Source: Candidatus Omnitrophota bacterium (GTDB lineage: Bacteria > Omnitrophota > Gorgyraeia > Tantalellales > Tantalellaceae). From it: a stretch of DNA of 64,000 nucleotides. A model generated the notes under the pieces. The model was not told the origin of the DNA. It made no database searches and saw nothing but the letters and a program-made list of their open reading frames with translations. Shown here piece after piece: positions 1 to 64,000 of this stretch. The position numbers and the translations under genes were made by a program. The first letter of the stretch is position 1, and each line of letters opens with the position of its first letter. Where the stretch lies: NCBI GenBank assembly GCA_043811395.1, contig JBDRNE010000025.1, positions 7,137 to 71,136 on the forward strand, written 5' to 3'.

Positions 1-372
1 CCCAAAAAACAGATAAATTTAGACAGCGTGCTTTTTTACCTGAATGTTATACAGCAGAATTTTGATTACGCGAATAATTTAAATTCCCAGCTTGTTGAGA
101 TAAAAACTGAAAAAGAAGAGACCCTGTCAGAGATTAGAGATTTAGAAAGAGTTGTGAACGAAACAGAACAAGAGATAAAACAAAAAAAAGCTTATGAGGA
201 CGAAATCCGCAATATTGAAATTGTCCAGGCGCCAAAAGTCGCGCGGTGTTGTCCTAAGACAAATATTTTTCGAAACTTTATCGGGGCAATATTTTTGAGT
301 ATGATTATTGGCATTTTTGCGGTATTTCTCGCGGAATTTTGGAAAAACATGGATAAAAATGATGGTAAATAA
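1..372 (+). CDS. C-terminal fragment of a polysaccharide chain-length determinant (Wzz/GumC-like) protein; reading frame is open from base 1, so the 5' end lies outside the window
   Basis: Frame 1 is open from the window edge. It has a coiled-coil-like charged stretch (EEKEETLSEIRDLERVVNETEQEIKQKKAYEDE) followed by a C-terminal hydrophobic helix (IGAIFLSMIIGIFAVFLAEF), the typical C-terminal architecture of Wzz/PCP proteins. Confidence 0.4.
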   Translation, partial: PKKQINLDSVLFYLNVIQQNFDYANNLNSQLVEIKTEKEETLSEIRDLERVVNETEQEIKQKKAYEDEIRNIEIVQAPKVARCCPKTNIFRNFIGAIFLSMIIGIFAVFLAEFWKNMDKNDGK

Positions 373-1531
373 TGTTATCTTGAAAAAACGATTCTTTTTA
401 AACGCTACAGTTATTGGTGTAATAAGTTTTGTTTTGGTAATCTTGACCGTTAATAGTGCAACTTGGTTTAGGGTGAAAAGGGCTCAGGGGTTTATTGAAC
501 GCGGTCAGACTGATTCAGCGCTTTCAATCTTGAAAAAAGCGTTTCGCAAGGAAACACTTTCTCCAGACAGACGCATTTTTGATTTAAGAAAAATCGCTGT
601 AAAAGATTTTATAGCTGTGGAATTAAATTCATTGTACTTAAAAAGCGCGAATCAAAGTTTAGAGAATGCTACCACGTTTTTTAAATCGCGGCTGAGAGAT
701 GCAAACAATTTTGAAAAGTCAATGGATGAATATTTGAAAATAATTGAACTTAAAAACGATTATGATGTTGCCTTAGGTGAAAACACAATGGCAACAGTGG
801 AATGGGACGTAATTTTAACTAAAACTAAAAACAAAAAGGCTACAGATTGTTTTATCTTTGGGGAAGAGCTTGTTGAATCTCAAAAATGGGATGACGCCAG
901 GATGTTTTACACCAAAGAAATTTTAAAATACCTGAGCCCGGTGGATGTTTTGCAAGCGTTACATAAACTTTATCCTAAAGGCGGACGGAAGAGCGAAAAG
1001 GAACACATTTGGGGAGGAGACATATTTGTAATTTTAGAAGATTTTGAAGAAAAGGACGCTCCTGTTTTAGGACCGTGGGCAAAATCGAGTGAACCCCGAG
1101 TAAACGAACATAGTATTTCAGAGGAAGAAGCCGTGAGCGGTAAAAGTTCAGAGTATTTCAATGTAGAATATGCTGGCGGACGTAATGATTATTGGGCAAA
1201 AACAGTAGATATCCCGTTAAATAATCCCGATTTGTCTTTGGGAATAAGAGTGTTTATAAAAAGTAACGGAAGTTTTAAGGGAGACTTGCGGGTTAATACT
1301 ACTTATCCTCCTAGTGGCAGATGCGGGATTACGTCTTCAACTTACCGGAAAAATTTGGAAAATGGCTGGATAGAATATGGTTTGGAAAACTTATATGAAA
1401 AAGCCCGCGAAAACGGTTTACAGCATAAATGGTCTGTTGATAACATGAAAATAGACAAAGTGCTTATTGACACATCTTGTGCTTTTTGCAAATTTTATGT
1501 TGATGACATTCAGCTGTATATCGTGGAGTAG
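359..1531 (+). CDS. hypothetical membrane-anchored protein (N-terminal TM helix, large soluble domain); function unknown
   Basis: ORF 308..1531 in the track; likely start is ATG 359/362 (MMVNNVILKK...), overlapping the upstream stop. One N-terminal TM segment (VIGVISFVLVILTV); no recognisable catalytic motif by eye. Confidence 0.45.
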   Translation: MMVNNVILKKRFFLNATVIGVISFVLVILTVNSATWFRVKRAQGFIERGQTDSALSILKKAFRKETLSPDRRIFDLRKIAVKDFIAVELNSLYLKSANQSLENATTFFKSRLRDANNFEKSMDEYLKIIELKNDYDVALGENTMATVEWDVILTKTKNKKATDCFIFGEELVESQKWDDARMFYTKEILKYLSPVDVLQALHKLYPKGGRKSEKEHIWGGDIFVILEDFEEKDAPVLGPWAKSSEPRVNEHSISEEEAVSGKSSEYFNVEYAGGRNDYWAKTVDIPLNNPDLSLGIRVFIKSNGSFKGDLRVNTTYPPSGRCGITSSTYRKNLENGWIEYGLENLYEKARENGLQHKWSVDNMKIDKVLIDTSCAFCKFYVDDIQLYIVE

Positions 1532-1620
1532 TATGAAGAAAAAAGAAGTTATCATGTTTTAGTTTTTTATTTCTCAACTGTGGCTATTCAAAAAACAAAA
1601 AAAGGTAAAGGTTTATTATT

Positions 1621-3429
1621 ATGGAAAACGAATATATTTTAGCGATTCATTGTGGGCATAACGCCTCTTGCGCGCTTATGCGGGATGGTAAGATAATAGT
1701 CGCGGTGCAGGAAGAGCGGTTTACACGTAAAAAAAATCATACCGGTTATCCCAAGTGTTCAATTGATTATTGTATGAGTAAGGTTGGCATTAGGGGGCAG
1801 GATCTTTCACGAATTGCTTATACGTCGACCAATTTAAGCGGCATTCTTGTTAAATCAAAATATTCGCTTAATTTTTCTGTGAGGGATTATCTCGATTATT
1901 ACGGAAAAAGATACTATCTCCCAAAAATGAATATGGAAAATGAAACGTGTTTCGAGTACTTAAAATGGCTACGTGATTCAGAAAAGTTCAATAAAGAGCC
2001 CCATTATTTTGATTACTCTTTTCTAACAGATGAAGTATTGAGGGACTATAATAAAAGTTTTAGTCTTTTTCGCGATGAACAAACTAAAACTTTATCTAAA
2101 CATTTAGGTGTAGAGCGTAATAAAATACGCTTCATTGACCACCATACTTGTCACGCGCATTATGCCTATTATGGGAGTCCTTTTCTCGGAGAGGATAGTA
2201 TCGTTATTACGCTGGACGGATGGGGGGACGGACGGAATCAGACTGTTTGGAAAGCATCAAATGATGGGCTCGAATTGCTGGCTGAGTCTTGTCAAAATGA
2301 TGTTGGACGGGTGTATAAGATGGCAACTTTGATTTTAGGCATGCGTCCGGACGAACATGAGTATAAGGTTATGGGGCTTGCGCCTTACGCGAAAAAATCT
2401 TACTGCCAAGGTCCGTTTGACGTTATCAAAGATATCTCACAGGTTGAGGATATGAAAATTGTATACAAAAATCGTCCGGAAGACTTATTTTCTTATTTGA
2501 AAAAACATTGGGAAGAATATCGTTTTGATAATATTGCCGCTGCCGTCCAATTGTATGTGGAAACCTTGGCAAAAGAGCTTATCGAAGATGTTGTCAAAAA
2601 AACCGGTATTAAAAAAATTGTACTTAGCGGCGGGATCTCGATGAATGTGAAAATGAATATGGCCATCGCGGAATTACCGTGTGTTTCTTCGTTGTTCGTT
2701 TGCGGTTCAGGCGGAGATGAATCTCTCAGTCTTGGCGGATGCTATTATCTGAATCGAAAGAATAAGAACAATCGACCGGTAGAAAGTTTGTGCATAGGGT
2801 ATGATGTTAAGGATGACTTGAGATCTATTGGCGAAGAGTTTGTTTCCGACCGCTATAATGTAAATAAAAACGTTTCAAATGCCGAAGTAGCTAGATTATT
2901 GGCTCGAGGACATATTATAGCCAGGGTTTGCGACTGTGCGGAGTTTGGGGCAAGAGCATTGGGTAATCGCAGTATTTTGGCTGATCCAAGTAAAAATGAT
3001 GTAGTACAAAAAATAAACAGAATGATTAAAAGAAGAGATTTTTGGATGCCTTTTGCTTTGTCAATACTCGAAGAATACACGGATGAGTATATTCTTAATC
3101 CAAAGAAAATAAAAGCTCCGTTCATGGCGCTTGCATTTAGCACTTTTCCGGATTTATACCGGAATATTCATGCGGGGACGCATCCCTACGACAAGACAGT
3201 TAGACCACAATTTGTTTCAAAGAAAACAAGTACTGGCTATTATAATTTGATAGAAGAATTTCGACAATTAACGGGTATTCCAGCCTTGTTGAATACTAGT
3301 TTTAATTTGCATGGTGAGCCTATCGTGAATGATGTGAAAGATTCTTTGCGCGCGTTTGAACTTTCTGGTCTGGATCATTTGCTGATAGAAGATACATTAG
3401 TCTCAAAACGTGACAAAAAGAGCGCATAA
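1621..3429 (+). CDS. carbamoyltransferase (NodU/CmcH/NovN family)
   Basis: 602 aa. N-terminal Kae1/YgjD-like carbamoyltransferase domain (ILAIHCGHNASCALMRDGKIIVAVQEERFTRKK; HHTCHAHYAY; GWGDG) plus C-terminal carbamoyltransferase domain. Size and motifs fit NodU-type O-carbamoyltransferases. AAAGG RBS precedes ATG 1621. Confidence 0.75.
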   Translation: MENEYILAIHCGHNASCALMRDGKIIVAVQEERFTRKKNHTGYPKCSIDYCMSKVGIRGQDLSRIAYTSTNLSGILVKSKYSLNFSVRDYLDYYGKRYYLPKMNMENETCFEYLKWLRDSEKFNKEPHYFDYSFLTDEVLRDYNKSFSLFRDEQTKTLSKHLGVERNKIRFIDHHTCHAHYAYYGSPFLGEDSIVITLDGWGDGRNQTVWKASNDGLELLAESCQNDVGRVYKMATLILGMRPDEHEYKVMGLAPYAKKSYCQGPFDVIKDISQVEDMKIVYKNRPEDLFSYLKKHWEEYRFDNIAAAVQLYVETLAKELIEDVVKKTGIKKIVLSGGISMNVKMNMAIAELPCVSSLFVCGSGGDESLSLGGCYYLNRKNKNNRPVESLCIGYDVKDDLRSIGEEFVSDRYNVNKNVSNAEVARLLARGHIIARVCDCAEFGARALGNRSILADPSKNDVVQKINRMIKRRDFWMPFALSILEEYTDEYILNPKKIKAPFMALAFSTFPDLYRNIHAGTHPYDKTVRPQFVSKKTSTGYYNLIEEFRQLTGIPALLNTSFNLHGEPIVNDVKDSLRAFELSGLDHLLIEDTLVSKRDKKSA

Positions 3430-3876
3430 ATCACAGAGAGTCCTCAGATTGTTTTGAAAATAGGACATGTTCCGGATTTCATGACAATAGATGAGTTAAA
3501 AGACCTGATGGATGGAGGCTACAAGCAGTTTTATTACAGGGCATTCTATTATCTTAAAAAGTTTAATGAACATAAGGTTTTTTGAAGATCTTAGAAAAAA
3601 CATAGTGGGGGCGCTTGGGTTTATGGGGATAGGCAAAGCATGATGAGATTTTTTTGTAGATTTTAGTTAAGTTTCCCCTCTCCATGTTAAGTCTTAAAAA
3701 GTTATTTTTCATTTCCTCTTTGGTTTTGATGACGTATCGCTAGAACGTTTCATTATATTTTGTACTTTGTGTAGCATAACTGCGTAACAAATTTCTTTTC
3801 AAAAAATGCAATATTACGAGAAATATTCGGGTTAAAAGCTTACAGATTTTATGTGAATTGGTTCCACGAAAGAGTC

Positions 3877-3906
3877 TTGACAGTATGTATATGTGTATTA
3901 TACAAT
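3877..3906 (+). promoter_or_regulatory. candidate sigma70-type promoter (TTGACA - 18 nt - TACAAT) in the 611-bp gap upstream of the epimerase gene
   Basis: TTGACA at 3877-3882 and TACAAT at 3901-3906, separated by 18 nt. It lies in the only long non-coding gap (3430-4040) of the left half of the locus. Confidence 0.35.
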
Positions 3907-4040
3907 AACGTCGTTTTGTTCGTTGAGTGTGTGTAAGATATTAAGAGGAAAACATTTAGAAGCCAATAAGCTTATCAGAATCTAATTGATGCTACTGATA
4001 ATTGGCTGAATCCAAAGTTTTTATAACTAGAGGATAGAAA

Positions 4041-5054
4041 TTGAGGACGGAAAATACGGAGAGGAAAGTAATTGTTACCGGTGGAGCTGGGTTTATCGGA
4101 TCACATCTTGTTGATTATCTCGTAGAAAAAGGATGTGAGGTTACTGTAATTGATAATTTTTCAACCGGTAGAAGGTCTAATCTTAAACATATCATTAGTA
4201 ATATCAGATTGGTCGAAGCAGATGTTACGAATTTTGAAGCTATTTTGCCCCATTTCCAAAATAAAGACATAGTTTTTCATTTAGCCGCTTTAGCGGATAT
4301 AGTTCCCTCTATTGTAAATCCTCTTAATTATTACCGGTCTAATGTTAATGGTACTATCAATGTAATGGAAGCTGTACGTTTGTCCAAAGTCAAAAAAGTG
4401 GTCTATTCAGCGTCTTCTTCGTGTTATGGTATTCCCTCCGAAGAACCTCGCCCGACATCTGAAACAGATCCAATAAATCCGCAGTATCCTTACGCGCATA
4501 CTAAATTTTTGGGAGAAGAAATAGTTCTGCATTATGGTAAAATTTATGAAATGCCAGTTGTTTCTTTGCGGTTATTTAATGTTTATGGTCCAAGGTCAAG
4601 AACATCAGGTACTTATGGAGCGGTTTTTGGGGTGTTTTTGGCTCAGAAACTTAAAAATAGTCCGTATACTGTCGTTGGCGACGGTACGCAGACACGTGAT
4701 TTTATTTATGTAAGAGACGTAGCGCATGCTTTCGCGAAAGCCGGGTTTTCGGATGTTAAAAATGAAGTATTTAATGTGGGATCCGGCAATCCTCAGAGTG
4801 TGAATAAACTGGTTTCACTTTTGGGAGGAGATAAGATTCACATACCTAAAAGACCGGGAGAGCCGGAATATACCTGGGCGGACATAAGTAAAATAGCGGA
4901 ACGTCTTTCTTGGCAGGCGGAAGTGTCTTTTGAAGAAGGTGTTGAGAGAATCGTGAAAAAAATTGATTATTGGCAGTCAGCTCCGGTTTGGACACCAGAT
5001 ACGATCGAAAATGAAACAAAAGAGTGGTTTCGGTATTTGACGAAAGGTGTATAG
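4041..5054 (+). CDS. NAD-dependent epimerase/dehydratase (extended SDR; UDP-sugar 4-epimerase / UDP-glucuronate decarboxylase-like)
   Basis: TTG start at 4041 with AGGATAG RBS. N-terminal Rossmann motif VTGGAGFIGSH; Yxx(x)K-type catalytic region (YAHTKFLGE); length 337 aa. Confidence 0.75.
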   Translation: MRTENTERKVIVTGGAGFIGSHLVDYLVEKGCEVTVIDNFSTGRRSNLKHIISNIRLVEADVTNFEAILPHFQNKDIVFHLAALADIVPSIVNPLNYYRSNVNGTINVMEAVRLSKVKKVVYSASSSCYGIPSEEPRPTSETDPINPQYPYAHTKFLGEEIVLHYGKIYEMPVVSLRLFNVYGPRSRTSGTYGAVFGVFLAQKLKNSPYTVVGDGTQTRDFIYVRDVAHAFAKAGFSDVKNEVFNVGSGNPQSVNKLVSLLGGDKIHIPKRPGEPEYTWADISKIAERLSWQAEVSFEEGVERIVKKIDYWQSAPVWTPDTIENETKEWFRYLTKGV

Positions 5055-6586
5055 TGAATCAGAAAGCATTAGAAAAAATAAAAACAATAGATGAATTATC
5101 CCTGATTTCGGAGACTCTAAAAAACGAAGGTCGAAAAATTGTTCAGTGTCACGGGGTGTTTGATCTTGTCCATTTAGGGCATATCAGGCATTTTAATTTG
5201 GCAAAAAAAGAAGCAGATGTTCTGATCATAACACTTACCGCTGACAAGCATGTCAAGAGAGGTCCCGGGCGGCCTGTTTTTAATGAACATTTAAGAGCGG
5301 AAACATTGGCGTCACTTGCTGTTAGCGATTATGTGTGTGTTATGGATTTTCCAACAGCTATCGAGGCTATTAAGCGGATTAAACCTGATATCTATGCGAA
5401 AGGGCTTGATTATAAAGAAAAGAGTAAAGATGTTACCGGCAAGATTTATGATGAAGAAGAGGCTGTTCGTGCTGTCGGTGGAGAAGTAGTGTTTACGGAC
5501 GACATTACTTTCAGTTCTTCAAATTTGATAAATAGTTATCTTGATGTGTATCCGCCCAAAACCATTAAATATTTAAAAGCTATAGCAAAAAGGCATAGCA
5601 CGGATTTAATAGTAGAAAGTCTCAATTTATTAAAAGATTTAAAAGTACTGGTTATCGGGGATGCTATTGTTGATCAGTATCACTATTGCACGCCCATGGG
5701 GAAGTCTTCTAAGGAACACCTGGTTGCGAACAGATACGTTTCAAAAGAAATGTTTGCCGGAGGAAGTTTGGCTACGGCAAACAATGTAGCAAGTATTTGT
5801 GATAAAGTGGATCTTTTGACAGTATTAGGAGAAAAGAGTTCTTTTCAGGAGTTTATTGAAAATCGTTTAGTTGAGAACGTCAATCCCGTATTTTTTTATC
5901 GGTCGGATACCGGGACTATCGTTAAAAGAAGGTTTGTCAGCCAAGGGGTTAATCGGAAACTTTTTGAAATTTGTTATATGAAAGATGATGATATTTCATT
6001 GCCGGCAGAAACGAAAATACTAGAACATCTTAAAAAAAATATTGAAAATTATGATTTGGTTGTTGTCTCTGATTTTGGGCATGGGCTTATGACAAAAAGG
6101 ATTATTGATTTTATTTGTGAAAACGCGAAATACCTGGCGCTTAATGTTCAGACAAATAGCGCCAATATCGGGTTTAACCTTGTAACAAAATACCCAAAAG
6201 CGGATTGTGTATGTGTTGATGAAATGGAGCTCAGGTTTGCCACGCATGATAGATTCAGCGATTTGCGTACACACGCGAAGGATATTTACGGGCGTCTTGG
6301 GTGCAGGCATATTATTGCCACTCGTGGCGCTCATGGTTCATTGTGTTATTCAAAAGAAGACGGGTATCATGAAACGCCCGCGTTTTCATACCGGGTTATT
6401 GACGCGATAGGCGCGGGAGACGCGTTTTTCGCGTTTGTAGCGCCGTGCTTTGCTAAAGGGTTTCCTCAGGACTTAGTGTCATTTATCGGCAATAGTGTCG
6501 GGTCATTGGCGGTTCAAATAGTATGTAACAGGGAACCCGTGAAATCAGTGGATTTAATAAAATTTATTACGCGGCTTTTAAAATGA
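5054..6586 (+). CDS. bifunctional sugar-phosphate nucleotidyltransferase / PfkB-family sugar kinase, HldE(RfaE)-like but with reversed domain order (cytidylyltransferase-like N-terminus, ribokinase-like C-terminus)
   Basis: N-terminus carries the nucleotidyltransferase HxGH motif (CHGVFDLVHLGHIRHF) as in RfaE domain II. The C-terminal half is a PfkB/ribokinase fold with the DAIGAGDAF anion-hole/ATP motif. Probable start is GTG 5054, overlapping the upstream TAG (TAGTG); the track ORF begins at the in-frame GTG 5024. Confidence 0.65.
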   Translation: MNQKALEKIKTIDELSLISETLKNEGRKIVQCHGVFDLVHLGHIRHFNLAKKEADVLIITLTADKHVKRGPGRPVFNEHLRAETLASLAVSDYVCVMDFPTAIEAIKRIKPDIYAKGLDYKEKSKDVTGKIYDEEEAVRAVGGEVVFTDDITFSSSNLINSYLDVYPPKTIKYLKAIAKRHSTDLIVESLNLLKDLKVLVIGDAIVDQYHYCTPMGKSSKEHLVANRYVSKEMFAGGSLATANNVASICDKVDLLTVLGEKSSFQEFIENRLVENVNPVFFYRSDTGTIVKRRFVSQGVNRKLFEICYMKDDDISLPAETKILEHLKKNIENYDLVVVSDFGHGLMTKRIIDFICENAKYLALNVQTNSANIGFNLVTKYPKADCVCVDEMELRFATHDRFSDLRTHAKDIYGRLGCRHIIATRGAHGSLCYSKEDGYHETPAFSYRVIDAIGAGDAFFAFVAPCFAKGFPQDLVSFIGNSVGSLAVQIVCNREPVKSVDLIKFITRLLK

Positions 6587-7161
6587 AACAAGACATTAAA
6601 CAATATTTTGGAGTTTTAAAATCTCTTTTTGATGAAGTTATCGTTACAGCCGAGGGCGGCGTGGTATGCCAGTTTAATGAAGCTATCAAAATGGCGGTAG
6701 AACTTATTTTGGATCAGGCTGGGCTTGGCGGGAAAGTTTTATTTGTGGGTAATGGCGCGAGCGCCGCGATTTCAAGTCATATGGCAACGGATTTTTGGAA
6801 AAATGCCGGGGTAAAAGCTCTTTCGTTTAATGACAGTTCATTGCTGACGTGTATAAGTAATGATTTTGGATATAAGCATGTCTTTGAAAAACCTGTTGAA
6901 ATGTTTGCCGAAAGTGAAGACGTTTTAGTCGCGATTTCAAGTTCAGGAGAGTCTGAAAACATTTTGAACGCGGTAAGCGCGGCAAAAAAAATAGGGCTTA
7001 AAATTGTGACTTTGTCAGGATTTAAAGATAATAATCCTTTAAGAAAAATGGGAGACATAAATTTTTATATGCCTTCAGTAAGTTACGGGCATGTTGAGAT
7101 AACGCATCTTTCGGTGTGTCATTGTATGTCTGATATCATAAAGGTTGGTAAAAATGGATAA
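6583..7161 (+). CDS. gmhA: D-sedoheptulose-7-phosphate isomerase (SIS domain, GmhA)
   Basis: 192 aa SIS-domain protein with VLFVGNGASAAISSHMATDF and SSSGESENIL motifs typical of GmhA. ATGA overlap with the upstream gene. Confidence 0.75.
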   Translation: MKQDIKQYFGVLKSLFDEVIVTAEGGVVCQFNEAIKMAVELILDQAGLGGKVLFVGNGASAAISSHMATDFWKNAGVKALSFNDSSLLTCISNDFGYKHVFEKPVEMFAESEDVLVAISSSGESENILNAVSAAKKIGLKIVTLSGFKDNNPLRKMGDINFYMPSVSYGHVEITHLSVCHCMSDIIKVGKNG

Positions 7162-8227: not shown

Positions 8228-8378
8228 CCCGAATTTCGCGTTAATCGGAATTCGCCTTTTGAAATTGTCATTCCCCTGTTTTCACAGGGGCAGGCTATGC
8301 GAAAGCAGGAATCTAGAAGGATATAGATTCTGGATTAAATTCGGGATGGCAACATTTTTGAAGAAGGGACCGGTCTTT

Positions 8379-8410
8379 CCCCCCTTTGAAAAAGGGGGTT
8401 AGGAGATTTT
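8379..8410. terminator. GC-rich hairpin (CCCCCCTTT-gaa-AAAGGGGG) followed by a T-rich tail; member of a repeat shared with 50093-50212; probable intrinsic terminator of the upstream operon segment
   Basis: 8-bp G/C stem at 8380-8387 / 8391-8398 with a 3-nt loop, then TTAGGAGATTTTAATT. Two further hairpins lie at 8273-8290 and 8309-8330 in the same 223-bp gap. Confidence 0.35.
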
Positions 8411-8450
8411 AATTAATGTCTGATTTTTAAATAAACAACGGTAAAAACAA

Positions 8451-10228: not shown

Positions 10229-10242
10229 GGTAAAAGGAAATT

Positions 10243-11688: not shown

Positions 11689-11701
11689 CGAAGGAGCACA
11701 A

Positions 11702-12364: not shown

Positions 12365-12375
12365 TAAGAGGGGTT

Positions 12376-13446: not shown

Positions 13447-13462
13447 CCAAAAGAAGTATCGG

Positions 13463-16287: not shown

Positions 16288-16289
16288 TA

Positions 16290-56856: not shown

Positions 56857-57645
56857 ATGACTACACAATGCGGACATACATTTGTGATACCTGTATATGG
56901 TGAATCGCCTTATTTGGAAGAATGCGTTATTTCCTTAAAAAAACAGACTGTACAAAGTGATGTTTTGATGACCACGTCTACACCTTCAGTTTTTTTAGAA
57001 AATTTGTCAAAAAAATACAATATTCCCATAATAATAAACCCTGTTTGTGAAGGCATTGCTTCGGACTGGTCTTTCGCGTACAATTCTTGCCGTACTAAAT
57101 ATGTGACATTGGCTCATCAGGATGATCTGTATTTTCATAAATATTGTGAACTGTGTTTATGCGCCGTAAAAGGGCAAAAAGACAATGTAATTACGTTTAC
57201 GGATTATTATGAATTGATCAAGGATAAGTTTGTGGGGTACAACTTGCATCTCTTAATAAAGAAAATACTGCTGACACCTTTTTTGCTAAAGAGAAATATT
57301 GCCTTTCCATTTATTAAAAGAACAATACTTTCTTTCGGTAACGCGATTTCCTGTCCGACGGTTATGTACAACAAAGAGCGTATAGGTTTTTTTAAATTTT
57401 CAGAAAAATTTAAATGCAATGTGGATTGGGACGCGTGGTTTAGATTGTCGGGGATAGACGGAAGTTTTGCTTATGTGGACAAAAAGATTATGGCGCATCG
57501 GATGCACAAGGAATCGGAAGCGTATTTGCTGAGGGAAAAAGGCGCGCGGGAAAAAGAGGATCAGGAAATGCTGGAGAAATTCTGGCCGAAAAAAATTGCC
57601 CGAATTATGGCATTTTTATACCGGTTCAATCTTAAACTCAACTAA
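56857..57645 (+). CDS. GT2-like glycosyltransferase (tentative)
   Basis: N-terminal FVIPVYGESPYLEECVISLKKQT pattern (GT2 beta1-alpha1) and acidic HQDDLY motif; weaker than the other GT2 calls. Confidence 0.4.
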   Translation: MTTQCGHTFVIPVYGESPYLEECVISLKKQTVQSDVLMTTSTPSVFLENLSKKYNIPIIINPVCEGIASDWSFAYNSCRTKYVTLAHQDDLYFHKYCELCLCAVKGQKDNVITFTDYYELIKDKFVGYNLHLLIKKILLTPFLLKRNIAFPFIKRTILSFGNAISCPTVMYNKERIGFFKFSEKFKCNVDWDAWFRLSGIDGSFAYVDKKIMAHRMHKESEAYLLREKGAREKEDQEMLEKFWPKKIARIMAFLYRFNLKLN

Positions 57646-57664
57646 TAGCATTCGCGGAATCAAT

Positions 57665-58963
57665 ATGGAAACAAAAATAAAAAGTATAACAAATTGGATA
57701 ATACGCCACAAGGGGGAACTTGTAGTGCTTTTTGTGTTTTTATTATTTGCTTTTGGGTATAACATATATCGTGTTCAAGGTGATGGAAAACTGTATTATG
57801 CTTTGTTGGAGAGAACTTTGAATATACCTGATCCTGAAAGTGCGCCTAATTTTCTTGAGTTGGGTTTTCTTCAAAGTATTTGTTCTTTTTTTAATATGCC
57901 GTTTTATCTTGCTGGTTACGCCATAGAAAAAATGCTTGCCGCGCCGATACTTCTCAAAGGAATAACCCTTCGTTCAGCGTTCATAAATATTGCCAGTAAT
58001 TTTTATATAGGCGCGTCTATAATTCTGATTTTTAAAATACTGGCCATGCTGAACTTTAAGCATAGAATAAGTTCTGTTCTCAGTATTCTTTTTTCAACGT
58101 CAGCGTTTGTCGCGGCGGTAGTTATGCCGGCGTATAATCACGCGGTGGATGTACTTATAGTTACTTTTTTTATATATGTGATATTGAAGCGTGAGAGGAT
58201 GTTGCCGATTAAAAGTTTCTGGATTGGCGCGGTTTATTCTTTGGCCATAGCTTCGCGATATTTTAATTTTGTGTTAATAGTTCCGTTACTTGTTATGCTT
58301 ATGATAAAAAAAGATTATTCAAGGATAAAATATATTTTGTTTGGATTCTTTAGCACAATATGGATTTTACCTGTACTGTTCTATTATTACAACGGAAGTC
58401 CGTTTAATCCATGTTTTTCTCAAGAAGCGGTTGGAAATGTTATTCATCGTATGACATTATTTCCGAAGTATACGTTTAGATATTTTGTTCACCCTTTGCA
58501 CGGATTATTTGTTTGGTCGCCGGTAACTATACTTTCAGCCATAGGGTTAGGGGTGATGCCTCGGGACAAAAAAGAGATAGGGTACATGTTTTTGGCGATG
58601 TGGGCACTAATTGTTATGATGAATGGCTATTTCTTTGAATGGACCGCTGGCTGGTCGTTTTCAAATCGTTATCTTACGGGATTATTTCCTATCTACATAG
58701 TCGGATTGGCCGCTTTGGCTGAAAAATATGGAAAAAGAATAGTTGTTTTAGCGGCGGCGTTAACTTTCTATTCAGTTTTTTTATTTTTCAACTGGTATAT
58801 GTGTGTAATAGACGGCGGCTGGGGCACGCCTTGGAATATGATTGAGGCATGGCAAAGGGGAAAGTTTTTTTATAGTACAGGTAAAGAGCTGAATTTTCGC
58901 GTATTTTGTGAAATGATGTATGAACACTCGAGGTATAAATATATTTTCAGGGGTTTTAATTAA
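57665..58963 (+). CDS. polytopic integral membrane protein of unknown function (possible GT-C-like transferase or polymerase)
   Basis: ≥10 hydrophobic helices across 433 aa, no soluble catalytic domain recognisable; start ATG 57665 chosen downstream of the preceding stop (the track ORF starts at 57596). Confidence 0.4.
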   Translation: METKIKSITNWIIRHKGELVVLFVFLLFAFGYNIYRVQGDGKLYYALLERTLNIPDPESAPNFLELGFLQSICSFFNMPFYLAGYAIEKMLAAPILLKGITLRSAFINIASNFYIGASIILIFKILAMLNFKHRISSVLSILFSTSAFVAAVVMPAYNHAVDVLIVTFFIYVILKRERMLPIKSFWIGAVYSLAIASRYFNFVLIVPLLVMLMIKKDYSRIKYILFGFFSTIWILPVLFYYYNGSPFNPCFSQEAVGNVIHRMTLFPKYTFRYFVHPLHGLFVWSPVTILSAIGLGVMPRDKKEIGYMFLAMWALIVMMNGYFFEWTAGWSFSNRYLTGLFPIYIVGLAALAEKYGKRIVVLAAALTFYSVFLFFNWYMCVIDGGWGTPWNMIEAWQRGKFFYSTGKELNFRVFCEMMYEHSRYKYIFRGFN

Positions 58964-58964
58964 A

Positions 58965-59372
58965 ATGAAAAAGATTGTTTCAATATTATTAGCTGTATGG
59001 ATGTTTGTATTATTTCTAAATTATTCTGGTTTTTTTCGGGATGATACAGATCCTGTCGGTGTGACGGAATTTTATTTTCGATGTATGGGGGCAGGTGATT
59101 GGACATTAACATACCAAATTACCGATCCAAAAAGTTTTGATCATCAAGAATTGTTGGATTTGAGGAACAATTTATTTTTTAAAGAACAACTTTGCAACTA
59201 TAAGACGGAATTGAAAACCTTGGAAGAGAAAAAAGCAGTTACGGAAACTCAGCTATTTTTCGAAAGTGGAAAAACTATTAAATGTACTACAGTACTGGAG
59301 AAACTGGGTACAGACGTGTGGTATATTAGGGAAACCCGTTATGATGAGGGAAAAATGGCGGTCAAAAAATGA
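58965..59372 (+). CDS. small hypothetical protein with N-terminal signal/anchor helix
   Basis: MKKIVSILLAVWMFVLFLNYSG hydrophobic N-terminus, then a soluble ~110-aa domain with no recognisable motif. Confidence 0.35.
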   Translation: MKKIVSILLAVWMFVLFLNYSGFFRDDTDPVGVTEFYFRCMGAGDWTLTYQITDPKSFDHQELLDLRNNLFFKEQLCNYKTELKTLEEKKAVTETQLFFESGKTIKCTTVLEKLGTDVWYIRETRYDEGKMAVKK

Positions 59373-60406
59373 GTAACAACCTGGCAAAAATTTTTTCAAT
59401 AGTGGTTTCTTTTGTTCTTGTGATATTTTTGATTTTACTGGGAGAATTATATTGCCGCGTATTTTGTGATATTCCGTTTTTGGGAAATAGTCGGGCTTTA
59501 TTTGTTAAAAACGCTTATGGAGACAGCATCGGAAATGCCGCCAAGATTGAAGCAGTGTCTTTTGGAACAAAAGTATATACAGATATTAACGGCTTTAGAG
59601 TTCCAATAGATTTTGAGGGTATCAGAAAACCAGGTAGAGCAATTTTATTTTTGGGGGATTCGGTTGCTTTTGGTCCCGGGACTAGAGAAGAGGATACCTT
59701 TGTTGGTTTGGCAAGAAAAGAATTTTTGACGATGAACATATATAATTCGGCAGTAATAGGTTATGATACGCGTGACTATAAAAACGTTATGGAACACTTT
59801 ATTCCTCAACATGAAGAGGTTGAGAGGATCTATTTAATCTTTTGTTTAAACGATATTTGTCATAGAAGCGCTGAACTAATTGATAATGCCATCGGGGCAT
59901 TAAAACAGGAATCCGGGCAGGCAAATAAGATGATTTGTTCGTTAGGGGCGAATAGATTTATCCAAAAAATAAATCAGTATTTAAGGTCTCGCTCTAAACT
60001 CTATTTAGCTCTGCGTCACATATTAACAGACCCTTCGGCTTTAAGTTGGGAAGCGGATAGGCTTCTCTATGAATCTGATAATGAGGAAAATTTTATGAAA
60101 ACTATGCGGGCGATAATCTATATAAATGATGCCGCAAAAATTAAAAAAATTCCGTTTACTGTTATAATTGCTCCATATGAATTCCAGTTACGTGATAATT
60201 TTAAGGGGAATCATTTGCCGCAGGAAAAACTAGTTAGTTTTTTTAAAAAGGAAGGGATTAATTATATCAATGCGCTTGATTACTTTAAAGATAGAGGGAT
60301 AAAGTCTAAAGAAATTTTTTTAACTTCCGATCCAATGCATTTTTCGCCAAAGGGACATAAAATAATGCATGAAATTATATGTGAAGACTATTCCGGTCAA
60401 AATTAA
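59369..60406 (+). CDS. SGNH/GDSL-family hydrolase (esterase/acyl-esterase-like) with N-terminal TM anchor
   Basis: N-terminal TM helix, then block I LFLGDSVAFG (GDS(x) Ser motif) and a late DPMHFSPKGH block V-like His motif. Confidence 0.5.
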   Translation: MSNNLAKIFSIVVSFVLVIFLILLGELYCRVFCDIPFLGNSRALFVKNAYGDSIGNAAKIEAVSFGTKVYTDINGFRVPIDFEGIRKPGRAILFLGDSVAFGPGTREEDTFVGLARKEFLTMNIYNSAVIGYDTRDYKNVMEHFIPQHEEVERIYLIFCLNDICHRSAELIDNAIGALKQESGQANKMICSLGANRFIQKINQYLRSRSKLYLALRHILTDPSALSWEADRLLYESDNEENFMKTMRAIIYINDAAKIKKIPFTVIIAPYEFQLRDNFKGNHLPQEKLVSFFKKEGINYINALDYFKDRGIKSKEIFLTSDPMHFSPKGHKIMHEIICEDYSGQN

Positions 60407-60518
60407 TAGACCTGAATTTTACGTCGATAGAGGCTCTACAATTGTGAAAAATGTGTTAAAATAAAGCGTAGTTTATGTTTAGGTTATAACAATTTTTTAA
60501 CTCAAAAAAGTGTTTATT

Positions 60519-61469
60519 ATGACGTATCTTTTTATTTTTATGATTGCTTGCGGAATAACTTTTTTAATTACGCCGACGATTCGTTATATGGCGTTAAAGT
60601 TTTCTGTTATTGACCGGCGAAACGCTCGCAAAATACATACCAGGATAGTAACTCGGTTCGGCGGAATAGGCATATACATAGGTTTCATATTCGCGATTTT
60701 AAGTTTATTTTTAATGCAGTTTGGCGTAAATAGCGCTAATTCCAAGCCTTTATGGGCCATAATTATGGCCTCTACTATGATTTTGATTTTAGGAATGTAT
60801 GATGACGCGAAAGGCGCGGACGCGAAAGTGAAATTTTTTGTTCAGATATTAGCAACTTTTCTTTTAATAAATGCTGGTTTTAAAATTGACATAGTTGGTA
60901 ATCCCTGGGGGGACCCTCTGAACTTGGGTATCTTTAGCATTCCTGTAACAGTTTTATGGATGGTAGGCATAACAAACGCTATTAACCTAATAGACGGGTT
61001 AGATGGGCTTGCGGTAGGTATAGCTTTTATATGCGCAATGGGTCTTTTTGTTAAATTTTTGATAGTTGGGCTTGTTTTGCCCGCTTTTTTTGCCGTGAGT
61101 TTGGCCGGGGCATGTTTGGGTTTTTTAAGGTATAATTTTTCACCCGCAAAGATATTTATGGGAGACACTGGAAGCATGTTTTTGGGGTTTTCAATAGCCG
61201 CGCTTGCTATATGGACAGGACAGAAAGCTTCAACAGCTGTGGTTTTAATTGTGCCGCTTTTGGGTCTTGGCGTACCTGTTTTAGATACGATTCTTGCTTT
61301 TTCCAGGCGCATTATACGCAGGCAAAATCCTTTTACAGCAGACAAAGAGCATCTTCACCATCTATTTTTAAAGACAGGACTTAGTGAAAAACAAGTTGTT
61401 TTTGTCTTTTGGGGAATAACGCTTTTTTTGAATATTTGTGCCTGTTATTTCTTCTGCCCTCCGCAGTAA
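60519..61469 (+). CDS. polyprenyl-phosphate N-acetylhexosamine-1-phosphate transferase (WecA/WbpL/MraY-family initiating phosphoglycosyltransferase)
   Basis: Multi-TM protein with DDxxG (MYDDAKGAD), NAINLIDGLDGLA and FMGDTGSMFLG motifs diagnostic of the MraY/WecA superfamily. Confidence 0.8.
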   Translation: MTYLFIFMIACGITFLITPTIRYMALKFSVIDRRNARKIHTRIVTRFGGIGIYIGFIFAILSLFLMQFGVNSANSKPLWAIIMASTMILILGMYDDAKGADAKVKFFVQILATFLLINAGFKIDIVGNPWGDPLNLGIFSIPVTVLWMVGITNAINLIDGLDGLAVGIAFICAMGLFVKFLIVGLVLPAFFAVSLAGACLGFLRYNFSPAKIFMGDTGSMFLGFSIAALAIWTGQKASTAVVLIVPLLGLGVPVLDTILAFSRRIIRRQNPFTADKEHLHHLFLKTGLSEKQVVFVFWGITLFLNICACYFFCPPQ

Positions 61470-61955: not shown

Positions 61956-62891
61956 ATGAAAAATAATAAATGTTCTCACGGGGTTATGTTTCACCATTTT
62001 TATGACCATACTCATGTAAAGAGCCAGGGGTCAATTTCTGCTGAACAATTAAGGCAAATAATAGAGTCTTACAACAGTGATTATGAAATTTTGTCTGCCG
62101 ATGAATGGATGTATAAAGCATGCCGTGGAGGGTTAAACGAAAATGAAGTCTGTCTGACTTTTGACGACGCTCTTTTATGTCAGTATGAGATAGCCCTGCC
62201 TGTTTTAGAAGATCTAGGTCTTACCGCTTTTTGGTTTATTTATTCGTCCATAATTGTTGGCAATGTAGAAATGCTGGAAGTATATAGAAAATTCCGGACA
62301 GATCATTTCAGGGATATTAACGATTTTTACGAAAAATTTTTTAATACGGTAAAACGTTTAGAACTTTGTATGAACATAGAATCAGTTCTAGAAAAAATTC
62401 CGAGAACTTTTCTTTATGATTTTTTGTTTTATTCGAAAGAAGACAGAGAGTTCAGATATTTTAGGGATATTATGCTCGGCGCAGATAATTATCGGAAGAT
62501 TATGAGTCTAATGATGGAAGAATGTAATGTTGATATAGACGAATTTGCAGATGGTTTATGGATGAAAGAAAAACATTTGAAGGATTTAGATTCGAAAGGT
62601 CACATTATCGGTCTGCATTCGCATAGTCATCCCACTTCAATGGCTTCATTATCCAGGAAAGAACAAAAGAAAGAATATAAGCTGAACTATGATATCCTTT
62701 ATCAAATATTGAACAAACATCCTGAAACTATGGCGCATCCGTGTAATTCATACAATCAAGACACGATGTCTATTCTTAAAGAATTTGATATTAAAATAGG
62801 TTTCAGGTCTAATATGGGAAAATGTCCTGTTTCTGAGTTGGAATTCAAGAGGGAAGATCACGCTAATGTTATGAGAAGGATAAACGGATGA
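61956..62891 (+). CDS. polysaccharide deacetylase (NodB-homology, CE4) family protein (ArnD-like deformylase/deacetylase candidate)
   Basis: TFDD (NodB motif 1, LTFDDAL) and HSHSHP (His-x-His metal motif) present; 311 aa. Confidence 0.6.
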   Translation: MKNNKCSHGVMFHHFYDHTHVKSQGSISAEQLRQIIESYNSDYEILSADEWMYKACRGGLNENEVCLTFDDALLCQYEIALPVLEDLGLTAFWFIYSSIIVGNVEMLEVYRKFRTDHFRDINDFYEKFFNTVKRLELCMNIESVLEKIPRTFLYDFLFYSKEDREFRYFRDIMLGADNYRKIMSLMMEECNVDIDEFADGLWMKEKHLKDLDSKGHIIGLHSHSHPTSMASLSRKEQKKEYKLNYDILYQILNKHPETMAHPCNSYNQDTMSILKEFDIKIGFRSNMGKCPVSELEFKREDHANVMRRING

Positions 62892-63682
62892 AGATAACTG
62901 TTTTTACAAGCAATCAGCCGCGCCATATCGCGCTTATTGAACAGATGGCTTCCATTGCTGATGAGGTTTTCGCGATTCAGGAATGTAATACTGTTTTTCC
63001 AGGACAAAGGGAAGATTTTTTTAAAAAAACAAAAGTTATGCAGGAATATTTCAGCAATGTTATTGAAGCGGAAAAGACTGTTTTTGGTTTGCCCCGTTTT
63101 TTGCCTGCGAATGTATGTTCTATGTCAATAAAATTGGGCGATTTAAATAAATTAGAACTAGATGTTTTAAGACCGGCTCTTGAAAGTGATTTCTACATTA
63201 TATTCGGAAGCAGTTTTATTAAAGGCGAGTTATGTGAATTTCTTATATCGCGAAAAGCGTTAAATATTCATATGGGACTTTCACCCTACTATAGAGGAAA
63301 TAGTTGTAATTTTTGGGCGCTTTTTGACGGTAAGCCGGACTATGTTGGTGCTACTATACATTTACTTTCAAAAGGGCTAGATTCAGGACAGATGCTTTTT
63401 CACGCTTTGCCTGGGGCGCGGAAGGTGGATGCGTTTTTGTTGGGCATGTTCGCAGTGAAATCCGCTCAGGAAGGATTAATGGCGTATTTAAAAAAAGGGA
63501 CTATCTTTGAAATAGCGCCAGTTGAACAGGATAAAAATCTTGCAATTAAATATACGCGCAACAAAGATTTTACTGATGAAGTGGCTTTAACTTATTTAAA
63601 AAACCAGCCTATAATGGAAGATATTTTTAATTCTTTGCTATGCAGGGATATGAGTAAATTTTTGCGTCCCTATGTTTATTAA
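62888..63682 (+). CDS. formyltransferase-domain protein (sugar N-formyltransferase, ArnA-N-terminal/Fmt-like)
   Basis: NIHMGLSPYYRGNSCNFWALFDG parallels the H-x-S-L-L-P-x-x-R-G-x-x-P-x-x-W-A signature of formyltransferases; ATGA overlap with the deacetylase gene. Confidence 0.55.
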   Translation: MKITVFTSNQPRHIALIEQMASIADEVFAIQECNTVFPGQREDFFKKTKVMQEYFSNVIEAEKTVFGLPRFLPANVCSMSIKLGDLNKLELDVLRPALESDFYIIFGSSFIKGELCEFLISRKALNIHMGLSPYYRGNSCNFWALFDGKPDYVGATIHLLSKGLDSGQMLFHALPGARKVDAFLLGMFAVKSAQEGLMAYLKKGTIFEIAPVEQDKNLAIKYTRNKDFTDEVALTYLKNQPIMEDIFNSLLCRDMSKFLRPYVY

Positions 63683-63695
63683 CACTGGAGGATGA

Positions 63696-64000
63696 ATGAA
63701 AGGCATAATCTTAGCGGGAGGGAAAGCGACACGGCTTTATCCTATAACAAAAGGCGTTTGCAAGCAGATGTTGCCGGTATATGATAAACCTCTTGTTTAT
63801 TATCCTTTATCAGTTTTAATGCTTGCCGGGATAAAAGACATTTTGATTATTTCGACGCCTAAAGATACCTCGAGGTTTAAAGACTTATTGGGTACGGGCA
63901 GAGATCTCGGAATTAACCTTACATACAAAGTGCAGGACGCGCCGCGCGGGATCGCGGAAGCTTTTATCGTGGCGGAAGAATTTATTGGCAAGGATACAGT
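63696..64000 (+). CDS. rmlA: glucose-1-phosphate thymidylyltransferase (RmlA), N-terminal part; continues beyond the window
   Basis: [57 protein letters not shown] ... is near-identical in pattern to RmlA N-termini; GGAGG RBS 4 nt upstream of ATG 63696; no stop before the window end. Confidence 0.8.

Follow-up and report, generated by a model that had tools for sequence, protein, structure and literature searches.

A radical SAM-rich region of an Omnitrophota genome as a probable surface-glycan supercluster built from recurring gene modules

The 64,000-nucleotide stretch analysed here (contig JBDRNE010000025.1, positions 7,137 to 71,136, of the Candidatus Omnitrophota assembly GCA_043811395.1), referred to below as the window, is tiled on its + strand by 61 open reading frames (ORFs; Table 1), nine of which encode radical S-adenosylmethionine (SAM) proteins, and these nine, together with the gene modules in which they lie, are the subject of this analysis. 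On the minus strand, 13 ORFs reach a length of 100 residues or more, and each of them is nested within a + strand gene, in agreement with an earlier sequence-only reading that had placed all credible genes on the + strand. Long non-coding gaps are found only at 3430-4040 (611 bp) and 30017-30521 (505 bp), at the starts of the gene groups that are called modules A and B below. Families were assigned by Pfam above the gathering score, and functions were transferred only at the equivalog cut-offs of NCBIfam. On that basis the earlier description of a surface-polysaccharide locus is upheld by a WecA-like initiator, at least 10 glycosyltransferases (by Pfam and NCBIfam seven GT2, two GT4, and one of the TIGR04372 family), a Wzy_C-domain protein, an exporter, and nucleotide-sugar pathways.

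All nine proteins belong to the Radical_SAM family by hidden Markov model (HMM) comparison (PF04055; 64-97 bits, cut-off 29.5), and each contains exactly one CxxxCxxC motif. Six of them carry an N-terminal B12-binding domain (PF02310; 43-75 bits, cut-off 32.1), and the other three, encoded at 7145-8227, 12376-13446, and 13439-14482, are about 350 residues long and lack that domain. The split into six B12-binding and three SPASM/twitch-type enzymes that had been read from the sequence is thus reproduced, except that the product of 12376-13446 does not match SPASM; its C-terminal cysteines C271, C289, C329, and C333 are invariant in 39 family sequences, and it is a full-length paralogue of the 7145-8227 product (25% identity) with corresponding C-terminal cysteines. 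Among themselves, the six B12 proteins share no more than 24-31% identity, which makes them old paralogues rather than recent duplicates. The highest score against the NCBIfam models is 179 bits for the B12 proteins (HpnJ, BchE, ApyD, or MJ_1487-type models, with cut-offs of 251-750) and 96 bits for the SPASM-type proteins.

A sequence search against solved structures, made for five of the nine proteins (those beginning at 7145, 12376, 10243, 44017, and 55438), returned DesII as nearest to 7145-8227, SkfB and BlsE as nearest to 12376-13446, AprD4 as nearest to both 10243-11688 and 55438-56856, and an unnamed radical SAM entry, 9ccb, as nearest to 44017-45480, with CysS, TokK, OxsB, and TsrM as lower-scoring relatives of the B12 proteins checked. 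Foldseek comparison of an AlphaFold2 model of the 12376-13446 product (pLDDT 76, pTM 0.80) retrieved SkfB, BlsE, DesII, SuiB, anSME, and viperin, with TM-scores not exceeding 0.57. The comparison with characterised enzymes that the sequence-only reading had called for therefore gives a likeness at the level of the superfamily (DesII, BlsE, SkfB, and AprD4, at 16-22% identity), by which the reaction of the radical SAM proteins is not decided, and the fact that three of the top structure matches act on nucleotide-linked sugars is suggestive at most.

Module A, which extends from 4041 to 13446, consists of a short-chain dehydrogenase/reductase (SDR), HldE-like and GmhA-like proteins, a radical SAM protein, a split transketolase-like enzyme, a methyltransferase, and a second radical SAM protein. 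The gene of the latter, 12376-13446, has more than 2000 homologues, the best 120 of which are 66-77% identical to it and nearly all about 356 residues long. In a scan of one genome per species (GTDB species genomes), a homologue was present at 70 loci, with 44-77% identity bar one weak match, the bacterial carriers including Omnitrophota, Planctomycetota, Verrucomicrobiota, Nitrospirota, Desulfobacterota, Campylobacterota, Leptospira, Actinomycetota, and Magnetospirillum moscoviense BB-1, and the archaeal ones Methanoperedens, Nanoarchaeota, and Woesearchaeota. The recurrent gene order is SDR, HldE-like, SIS isomerase, radical SAM-SPASM (41-62% identity to the 7145-8227 product), transketolase-like N and C subunits, a methyltransferase of 220 residues, and radical SAM; it is found, at 60-75% identity, on an Omnitrophota chromosome (L010; loci fetched for comparison are cited by L numbers), and comparable groups of genes are present in Methanoperedens, Nitrospirota, and Actinomycetota. 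The chromosome of Candidatus Omnitrophota bin17 (CP070780.1) carries two copies of the radical SAM/transketolase-like core, each within its own glycan region (L010 at ~165-186 kb and L012 at ~1140-1161 kb, with 72% and 70% identity to the window gene, respectively).

Gene co-occurrence was tabulated for the 39 loci with a 12376-13446 homologue that are 20 kb or longer. The transketolase-like genes are present at 30 of these loci, at 28 of them together with the methyltransferase, which itself also occurs at 30; the first radical SAM gene is present at 20 (19 of them with the transketolase-like genes), HldE-like genes at 21, and SIS genes at 16, in every case with HldE. These counts define a tight core of the transketolase-like genes, the methyltransferase, and the two radical SAM genes, to which HldE and SIS are frequent yet separable additions. 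The candidate role of HldE and GmhA as obligatory partners of the core trio was accordingly rejected, since HldE is found at only 21 of the 39 loci and neither gene accompanies the trio on plasmid pDCAR1 of the cultured sulfate reducer Solidesulfovibrio carbinolicus DSM 3852 (NZ_CP026539.1, 87-120 kb; L083), where the core has 58% identity to that of the window and is neighboured by pseB, pseC, pseF, and an MptE-like (Maf-type) gene. The same plasmid region holds two transketolase-like gene pairs, a methyltransferase/radical SAM pair, a TIGR04372 glycosyltransferase, and further radical SAM genes, and it looks like a flagellin glycosylation island.

The isomerase, kinase/nucleotidyltransferase, and SDR genes of module A recall the ADP-heptose pathway (GmhA, HldE, GmhB, and HldD), in which a SIS isomerase, a PfkB kinase with a cytidylyltransferase-like domain, and an SDR are likewise encoded together. 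In the window, however, the scores lie below the equivalog cut-offs for the whole set (heptose_epim, for instance, gives 134 bits against 275), GmhB is missing, there being no HAD phosphatase in the window, and the domain order of the HldE-like protein is the reverse of that in E. coli HldE, with the nucleotidyltransferase at the N-terminus and the PfkB kinase at the C-terminus. At three other loci (L015, L016, and L040) the two halves are separate genes.

Among solved structures, the transketolase-like enzyme comes nearest to the split transketolase of Carboxydothermus hydrogenoformans (PDB 6YAJ/6YAK; 246-263 bits), which it resembles in its two subunits and in the conserved residues that bind thiamine diphosphate (ThDP), metal, and donor, and from which it differs by the replacement of H416, S345, R474, and D424 (human transketolase numbering throughout). 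Alignments of 51 N and 48 C subunits from cassette-linked homologues show that His37, His77, His258, and the GDG..N metal motif are kept in all 51 N subunits and His110 in 46, and that the cofactor-activating Glu366 is kept in all 48 C subunits, with R318 and a His at position 428 in 47. In transketolases, R318, S345, H416, and R474 bind the sugar phosphate and D424 the C2-hydroxyl of the acceptor. Here, H416 is G or A and S345 is absent in 48 of 48, D424 is L, Q, A, or another residue in 47, and R474 is K or T in 43, so that from the sugar-phosphate/acceptor set of five residues R318 alone is retained. This pattern is consistent with an enzyme that would still move a two-carbon ketol unit, although to a non-canonical acceptor, the most economical guess being a chain extension or branching of a sugar. 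A role of the split transketolase as a mere supplier of sedoheptulose-7-phosphate is unlikely, as both phosphate and acceptor residues are replaced. ThDP enzymes that add two-carbon branches to nucleoside diphosphate (NDP)-ketosugars include the E1-like AlmDI/DII; to YerE, a ThDP enzyme of the two-carbon branching type, the transketolase-like enzyme of module A has no sequence relationship.

The B12-type radical SAM gene of module B, 36314-37828, belongs to a family with many relatives at 46-60% identity. At locus L082 its 60% orthologue is preceded by a homologue of the 602-residue protein (49.5%) and by two hexapeptide transferases (55-57%), and is followed by a GT2 homologue (45%), with a carbamoyltransferase homologue (43%) upstream; the further genes of this locus encode PglC-like, PglF-like, and STT3/PglB proteins. 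FabH, acyl carrier protein (ACP), and FabG were not found at L082, which marks the acyl cassette as an insertion peculiar to the window. For the same reason, i.e. because the orthologue keeps its hexapeptide and 602-residue neighbours without FabH-ACP-FabG, modification of the FabH-ACP-FabG acyl chain by the 36314-37828 product was rejected as a conserved link. A metagenomic protein of 706 residues (P0370, from ENA) has a class I SAM methyltransferase domain fused to a B12 radical SAM part with 48% identity to the 36314-37828 product.

Module C contains the radical SAM gene 44017-45480, the preceding GT2 gene of which ends only 4 nt upstream. Relatives of the radical SAM protein at 55-65% identity occur in Saganbacteria, Elusimicrobia, Patescibacteria, Pacearchaeota, Margulisbacteria, and others, and in the three contexts examined, including Staskawiczbacteria and Saganbacteria, the family lies amid GT2, GT4, and PMT_2 genes. 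A metagenomic protein of 758 residues, P0138, is a natural fusion of the two neighbours, its N-terminal 265 residues being 46% identical to GT2 43188-44012 and its C-terminal part 62% identical to the 44017-45480 product, and the locus of this fusion (L079) also holds homologues of GT2 45485-46366 (41%) and of the Wzy_C protein (45%).

Such proximity is not confined to module C. Four of the six B12 enzymes (those beginning at 21822, 44017, 54063, and 55438) directly adjoin GT2 genes, two of which encode full-length polyprenyl-phosphate transferases with C-terminal transmembrane (TM) helices (ArnC/PgfS-like and AglJ/PpgS-like), and the SPASM-type radical SAM genes are situated inside the nucleotide-sugar cassette. 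Among the fetched loci, a GT2 ORF adjoins 9 of 67 B12-type but 1 of 128 SPASM-type radical SAM ORFs (Fisher p = 3e-4). The GT2 adjacency and the P0138 fusion together suggest that the B12 enzymes act on the product of a glycosyltransferase, i.e. on a lipid-linked or polymer-bound sugar, and not on free nucleotide sugars.

The six B12 and three SPASM/twitch-type proteins stand in a region that also encodes six SAM methyltransferases by Pfam (11702-12364, 14469-15236, 16290-17474, 19039-19839, 28376-29248, and 29336-30016), one fewer than had been counted from the sequence. The TylF-like and FkbM-like members (14469-15236 and 28376-29248) are confirmed by Pfam; the supposed NDP-hexose C-methyltransferase, in turn, is not confirmed, because 16290-17474 matches the generic Methyltransf_23 and shows no Methyltransf_13/14 flanking its SAM domain, as a TylC3-type C-methyltransferase would, a genuine two-domain example of which is present at L079. 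It is also supported that characterised O-antigen and capsule loci carry a far smaller load of radical SAM and methyltransferase genes. The one relevant parallel that the literature offered, by gene content, is the HS:19 capsule cluster of C. jejuni (PMC8743553), where, too, a radical SAM gene adjoins a methyltransferase, although it is the only one there and not of the B12 type. Full-text literature searches on radical SAM and surface glycans gave no description of the present cassettes.

The earlier presentation of the locus as unique is not borne out. When HMMs made from the radical SAM proteins of the window itself are applied with a threshold of 40 bits, the 39 loci around 12376-13446 homologues, from species genomes of many phyla, have 3 radical SAM ORFs per 21 kb in the median and 5 at most, the densest 21 kb of the window containing 5, and with a looser threshold single loci reach 6-7. 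That the count rises to nine is due to the length of the region and to the several modules stacked in it. Radical SAM-rich glycan loci are thus common in uncultured, mostly anaerobic lineages, and as a phenomenon they appear to be hitherto undescribed. The window, as judged from sequence comparison, is put together as a mosaic from at least three modules that are also present, at 41-77% identity, in the glycan loci of many other lineages and phyla.

The modules are accompanied by ordinary nucleotide-sugar pathways. The genes for CDP-glucose formation and its 4,6-dehydration pass the NCBIfam equivalog cut-offs, and module B is joined by FabH-, ACP-, and FabG-like genes (the ACP with its DSL motif), which, like the carbamoyltransferase and the three hexapeptide acyltransferases, had been named correctly. 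The fused ABC exporter scores 429, 341, and 244 bits for HepA, MsbA, and PglK, respectively, all below cut-off (domains ABC_membrane and ABC_tran), and is the sole ABC protein among the 61 by Pfam, no Wzm/Wzt or KpsM/KpsT pair having been found. From the Wzy-like polymerase claimed earlier there remains a Wzy_C domain that barely exceeds its cut-off; the function of a polymerase does not follow from it, as the domain is common to WaaL ligases. Near the end of the window, the deacetylase gene overlaps the start of the formyltransferase gene by 4 nt in a pairing that resembles ArnD and the ArnA N-domain. The formyltransferase is indeed present, as had been read, but by analogy with the Arn pathway the N-formyl group may be transient rather than a final decoration. 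In the independent contig L002, RmlA-like and RmlC-like genes follow downstream of the window end, and the glycan region is therefore longer than 64 kb.

Taken together, it is judged likely that the window represents a surface-glycan supercluster of Omnitrophota in which at least three gene modules, circulating among mostly anaerobic, uncultured bacteria and archaea, have been joined with ordinary nucleotide-sugar pathways. In the model proposed here, three routes would provide activated sugars, one through CDP-glucose 4,6-dehydratase, one of the RmlA type, and one that is HldE/GmhA-like. The ThDP enzyme of module A, in which the catalytic machinery of transketolase is intact though the canonical sugar-phosphate pocket is missing, would transfer a two-carbon ketol unit to an unusual acceptor, following which the two paralogous SPASM/twitch radical SAM proteins would act on the activated sugar, e.g. 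by deoxygenation, oxidation, or epimerisation, and the class I methyltransferase would act last. The hexapeptide transferases would N-acylate the amino sugars that the DegT enzyme makes, and FabH-ACP-FabG would probably supply one of the acyl groups as a 3-hydroxyacyl. The repeat unit would be started on polyprenyl phosphate by the WecA-like transferase and extended by the GT2 and GT4 enzymes, and the six deeply diverged B12 radical SAM proteins would most likely methylate unactivated carbons, other B12-radical chemistry being less likely, on the glycosyl product of the transferase beside them, whether this is a lipid-linked sugar or a glycan that is still growing. Export and assembly may then proceed through the HepA/MsbA/PglK-like ABC protein and the Wzy_C protein, with the two polyprenyl-phosphate GT2 enzymes and the unassigned polytopic membrane proteins possibly adding side residues outside the cytoplasm. 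The twofold proposal contained in this model, namely that the module A core (more than 10 phyla of bacteria and archaea, often with HldE/GmhA-like genes) encodes a pathway, not described so far, that leads to a radical-modified sugar with an extended or branched chain, and that the GT2-side B12 enzymes C-methylate glycosyl residues after transfer, is put forward tentatively, both parts holding together being possible rather than probable.

Several observations weigh against this model. All nine radical SAM proteins fall short of the curated NCBIfam cut-offs, so that every reaction type given above, and with it the set of several C-methylated sugars announced by the sequence-only reading, is an inference. 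On pDCAR1 the trio of transketolase-like, methyltransferase, and radical SAM genes sits amid pseudaminic-acid and Maf-type genes without HldE or GmhA, from which it follows that the substrate of module A need be neither a heptose nor a sugar of a lipid-linked polymer. As R474 is often Lys and R318 is retained, the transketolase-like enzyme may still bind phosphate to some extent. A Wzx-type flippase, a Wzm/Wzt pair, and Wzz all lack an HMM match in the window (there is no Polysacc_synt, MOP, or Wzz match among the 61 proteins, for the unassigned ones even at E up to 1); the WecA-like protein (134 bits for the WecA equivalog, cut-off 326) and the HldE-like and GmhA-like proteins remain below equivalog cut-offs, and a GmhB phosphatase was not found. 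Finally, the GT2-adjacency test is a crude one, made with home-made HMMs on a biased sample of loci.

The alternative inherited from the sequence-only reading, that one contiguous locus directs one glycan with all the decorations (C-methyl or radical-modified sugars, O-methyl, acyl, formyl, and carbamoyl groups), can point to the co-orientation and tight packing of the genes, to the single WecA-like initiator and single Wzy_C protein, and to the lack of any interrupting tRNA, insertion sequence (IS), or Rfam element in Rfam and tRNA scans of the window. It is weakened by the separability of the modules, which elsewhere occur in other contexts (pgl-like at L082, pseudaminic-acid/Maf-like on pDCAR1), by two assembly or export routes (Wzy_C and the HepA/MsbA-type ABC protein) along with two polyprenyl-phosphate GT2 enzymes, by the two gaps of 505 and 611 bp and a block-wise GC content of 0.32-0.42, and by the continuation of glycan genes past the window, all of which leaves it doubtful. 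Within the supercluster reading, more than one glycan product is as likely as one.

Whether the radical SAM genes belong to glycan synthesis at all could be questioned on the ground that the top NCBIfam matches of the B12 proteins, all far below cut-off, are lipid and tetrapyrrole enzymes (HpnJ, BchE, and the ladderane-lipid B12 radical SAM), as if these genes were passengers for the modification of lipids, cofactors, or peptides that came to lie among glycan genes by chance. This is improbable, given that the orthologues of four of the nine keep glycan neighbours across phyla, that one radical SAM protein is fused to a GT2, and that nine in 61 genes is far above chance (for at least nine, P = 3e-6 to 8e-5 under our assumption that 2-3% of the genes of an anaerobe encode radical SAM proteins). 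Their assignment to glycan synthesis, as made from the sequence, is thereby strengthened.

The joining of glycan loci from different genomes by an assembly artefact would be a trivial source of the mosaic. The GC content, which is unequal between blocks (0.32-0.34 over module B, 30000-37000, and 0.42 at the end of module A, 14000-17000), and the presence of the same region in pieces of ~2-3.5 kb in assembly GCA_018814505.1 (contigs JAHIZQ010000310, 133, and 185; L001, L002, and L004) might be taken as signs of a chimera. The former, however, also fits modules of different origin, and the latter would be expected if co-existing strains differ in a hypervariable glycan region. Two other assemblies (GCA_018814505.1 and Logan SRR27458548) match 742-5024, 9991-12005, and 62456-64000 at 99.94-100%, including the junction across the 611-bp gap, the GC skew is positive in every 2-kb window, and the module orders agree with complete chromosomes of other Omnitrophota, e.g. 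L010; with three stretches checked against independent contigs nothing points to a chimera, which is thus very improbable.

Sugar-acting radical SAM enzymes of antibiotic pathways include DesII, BlsE, AprD4, and BtrN, and, as B12-dependent ones, those of the GenK/GenD1 type. The proteins of the window resemble them in the CxxxCxxC core and in having NDP-sugar enzymes as neighbours, and AprD4 is the top match of two of the three B12 proteins checked, but the likeness is confined to the superfamily and the context is that of a polymer locus. A cluster for a glycosylated small molecule (aminoglycoside- or nucleoside-like) is hardly credible, even though B12 radical SAM proteins, TylF- and FkbM-like methyltransferases, a carbamoyltransferase, and FabH-ACP-FabG are what antibiotic clusters typically contain and DesII, BlsE, and AprD4 are the nearest solved relatives, as the window encodes a WecA-like initiator, a Wzy_C protein, at least 10 glycosyltransferases, and polyprenyl-phosphate GT2 enzymes, no polyketide synthase, nonribosomal peptide synthetase, cyclitol synthase, or precursor peptide was found in it by Pfam, and in other genomes the orthologues have flippases, PglB/STT3, PMT_2, and capsule genes at their sides.

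The supercluster can be set beside two further known systems. With the Wzy-dependent O-antigen and capsule loci of Enterobacteria (rfb/cps) it shares a WecA-family initiator, GT2 and GT4 enzymes, a Wzy_C polytopic protein, nucleotide-sugar pathways (CDP-glucose 4,6-dehydratase, RmlA/C-like), a DegT aminotransferase, and hexapeptide acyltransferases; it differs from them by lacking recognisable Wzx and Wzz, by an additional ABC exporter, two polyprenyl-phosphate GT2 enzymes, nine radical SAM proteins, and six methyltransferases, and by its length of at least 64 kb, several times the usual size. With the Arn (L-Ara4N) and Gtr-type systems it has in common an ArnC/PgfS-like GT2, an ArnB-like aminotransferase, a formyltransferase beside a deacetylase, and polytopic proteins nearby, whereas its scores are below the equivalog cut-offs, there is no ArnT/GT-C match, and B12 radical SAM genes lie between GT2 and membrane protein.

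To our knowledge, only a small number of radical SAM enzymes act on sugars, and new chemistry has come from each of them (DesII, BtrN, AprD4, GenK, and BlsE). One glycan region of the window holds nine radical SAM proteins, at least four of which belong to families highly conserved across phyla and without an assigned function, and what makes the region valuable is not so much this number as its conserved units that can be tested, namely the eight-gene cassette with its cultured carriers (S. carbinolicus DSM 3852 with pDCAR1, and Magnetospirillum moscoviense BB-1), the transketolase-like enzyme, the pocket residues of which predict a non-phosphorylated, non-2-hydroxy acceptor, the pair of GT2 and B12 radical SAM protein with its natural fusion, and the hexapeptide/B12 radical SAM module. 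If the proposed model is correct, anaerobic uncultured lineages (Omnitrophota, candidate phyla radiation (CPR), DPANN, Planctomycetota, and Nitrospirota) would carry surface sugars missing from glycan databases, with a bearing on phage-host recognition and B12 demand, and C-methylation after transfer would be a new class of glycan-level tailoring.

Table 1. Predicted genes of the window, all on the + strand (rSAM, radical SAM protein; B12, B12-binding; MT, methyltransferase; TK, transketolase; A, B, and C, modules)
Position	Product	Module	Basis and remarks
1-372	3' end of gene cut by window edge		Coiled coil, C-terminal TM helix; no Pfam/NCBIfam match
308-1531	407-residue protein		Predicted N-terminal TM helix; no family match
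1621-3429	Carbamoyltransferase, NodU/CmcH type		Carbam_trans_N, Carbam_trans_C; NodU 93 bits, below cut-off
4041-5054	GalE/UXS-like NDP-sugar SDR	A	Homologues 54-69% identical in L005, L006, L010
5024-6586	HldE-like sugar-phosphate kinase and nucleotidyltransferase	A	CTP_transf_like residues 43-134, PfkB 207-498; HldE 153 bits, cut-off 521
6583-7161	GmhA-like SIS isomerase	A	SIS_2; gmhA 108 bits, cut-off 209
7145-8227	rSAM 1/9, SPASM	A	SPASM PF13186 33.2 bits, cut-off 21.5; closest solved relative DesII
8451-9284	TK-like N subunit (ThDP binding)	A	Pfam, residue alignment
9281-10228	TK-like C subunit, altered acceptor/phosphate pocket	A	Pfam, residue alignment
10243-11688	rSAM 2/9, B12		PF04055, PF02310
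11702-12364	Class I SAM MT	A	Constant partner of 12376-13446; homologues 58-72% identical adjoin the rSAM in other genomes
12376-13446	rSAM 3/9, twitch-like, 356 residues	A	PF04055; most conserved gene of the window
13439-14482	rSAM 4/9, SPASM		SPASM 22.9 bits, cut-off 21.5
14469-15236	TylF-like O-MT		Pfam
15382-16287	RmlD-like NDP-sugar reductase		Pfam/NCBIfam
16290-17474	Class I MT, 394 residues		Methyltransf_23/12/11 only; 38% homologue on pDCAR1
17675-19009	TIGR04372-family glycosyltransferase		230 bits, cut-off 45; homologues 31-49% identical near module A cassette elsewhere
19039-19839	Class I MT		Pfam
19817-21772	651-residue polytopic membrane protein		At least 9 TM predicted; candidate GT-C or flippase; no family match
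21822-23411	rSAM 5/9, B12		PF04055, PF02310
23471-24403	ArnC/PgfS-like polyprenyl-phosphate GT2		Pfam, NCBIfam; two C-terminal TM helices predicted
24363-25397	NDP-hexose 4,6-dehydratase-like SDR		Pfam/NCBIfam
25348-26520	DegT/PseC/ArnB-type sugar aminotransferase		Pfam/NCBIfam
26579-28339	Fused transmembrane domain-nucleotide-binding domain (TMD-NBD) ABC exporter, HepA/MsbA/PglK-like		Homologues 55-60% identical in L008, L012
28376-29248	FkbM-type MT		Pfam
29336-30016	Class I MT		Pfam
30522-32330	602-residue protein	B	Faint GT-B-like matches only; 49.5% homologue in L082
32365-33039, 33058-33657, 33666-34211	Three hexapeptide-repeat acyltransferases	B	Pfam
34261-35259	FabH-like ketoacyl-ACP synthase (KAS) III		Pfam
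35284-35514	ACP		Pfam; DSL motif
35511-36287	FabG-like reductase		Pfam
36314-37828	rSAM 6/9, B12	B	PF04055, PF02310
37830-38840	SDR epimerase/dehydratase		Pfam/NCBIfam
38865-39851	GT2	B	45% homologue in L082
39854-40651	Glucose-1-phosphate cytidylyltransferase		363 bits, equivalog cut-off 300
40567-41766	CDP-glucose 4,6-dehydratase		457 bits, equivalog cut-off 278
41739-42218	RmlC-like epimerase, CDP-6-deoxyhexose pathway		Pfam
42172-43191	SDR reductase, CDP-6-deoxyhexose pathway		Pfam
43188-44012	GT2	C	Ends 4 nt before 44017-45480
44017-45480	rSAM 7/9, B12	C	PF04055, PF02310
45485-46366	GT2	C	41% identical to neighbour in L079
46363-47496	GT4	C	Pfam
47630-48931	Wzy_C polytopic protein (polymerase or ligase)		33 bits, cut-off 31.7; at least 9 TM predicted
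48928-50082	GT4		Pfam
50229-51212	SDR		Pfam/NCBIfam
51146-51958	GT2		Pfam
52007-53026	GDP-fucose-synthase-like SDR		Pfam/NCBIfam
53029-54018	AglJ/PpgS-like polyprenyl-phosphate GT2		Pfam, NCBIfam; C-terminal TM helices predicted
54063-55457	rSAM 8/9, B12		PF04055, PF02310
55438-56856	rSAM 9/9, B12		PF04055, PF02310
56857-57645	Weak GT2		Pfam
57596-58963	455-residue polytopic membrane protein		At least 7 TM predicted; no family match
58920-59372	150-residue protein		ORF; no assignment
59369-60406	SGNH/GDSL esterase-like protein		Family match
60510-61469	WecA/MraY-family polyprenyl-phosphate N-acetylhexosamine-1-phosphate transferase (initiator)		Glycos_transf_4, 139 bits
61573-61926	MarR/HTH_24 regulator		Pfam
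61956-62891	Polysaccharide deacetylase-family protein		Pfam
62888-63682	Formyltransferase		Pfam
63696-64000	RmlA-like nucleotidyltransferase, 5' part		Family match

Among the remaining genes, the two polytopic membrane proteins (19817-21772 and 57596-58963) had been called GT-C transferases, an assignment that could not be substantiated, as neither matches a GT-C family (PMT_2, ArnT, STT3, or similar) even at E up to 1. Similarly, the fragment at 1-372 had been taken for Wzz, whereas its topology is the whole basis for regarding it as a Wzz-like or polysaccharide co-polymerase (PCP)-like product. The next ORF, 308-1531, begins in its longest form with TTG and overlaps the end of the first gene by 65 nt (308-372), its real start probably lying further downstream.

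Scans of the window for Rfam elements, tRNAs, promoters, and terminators gave nothing above chance except one promoter-like site at 3877-3906, within the 611-bp gap, which consists of TTGACA, an 18-nt spacer, and TACAAT (11 of 12 positions matching), the number of such sites not being above that in shuffled controls. Helix-turn-helix proteins 36-42% identical to the MarR-type regulator of the window recur near the module A cassette at three other loci (L008, L010, and L035), which hints at a dedicated regulator.

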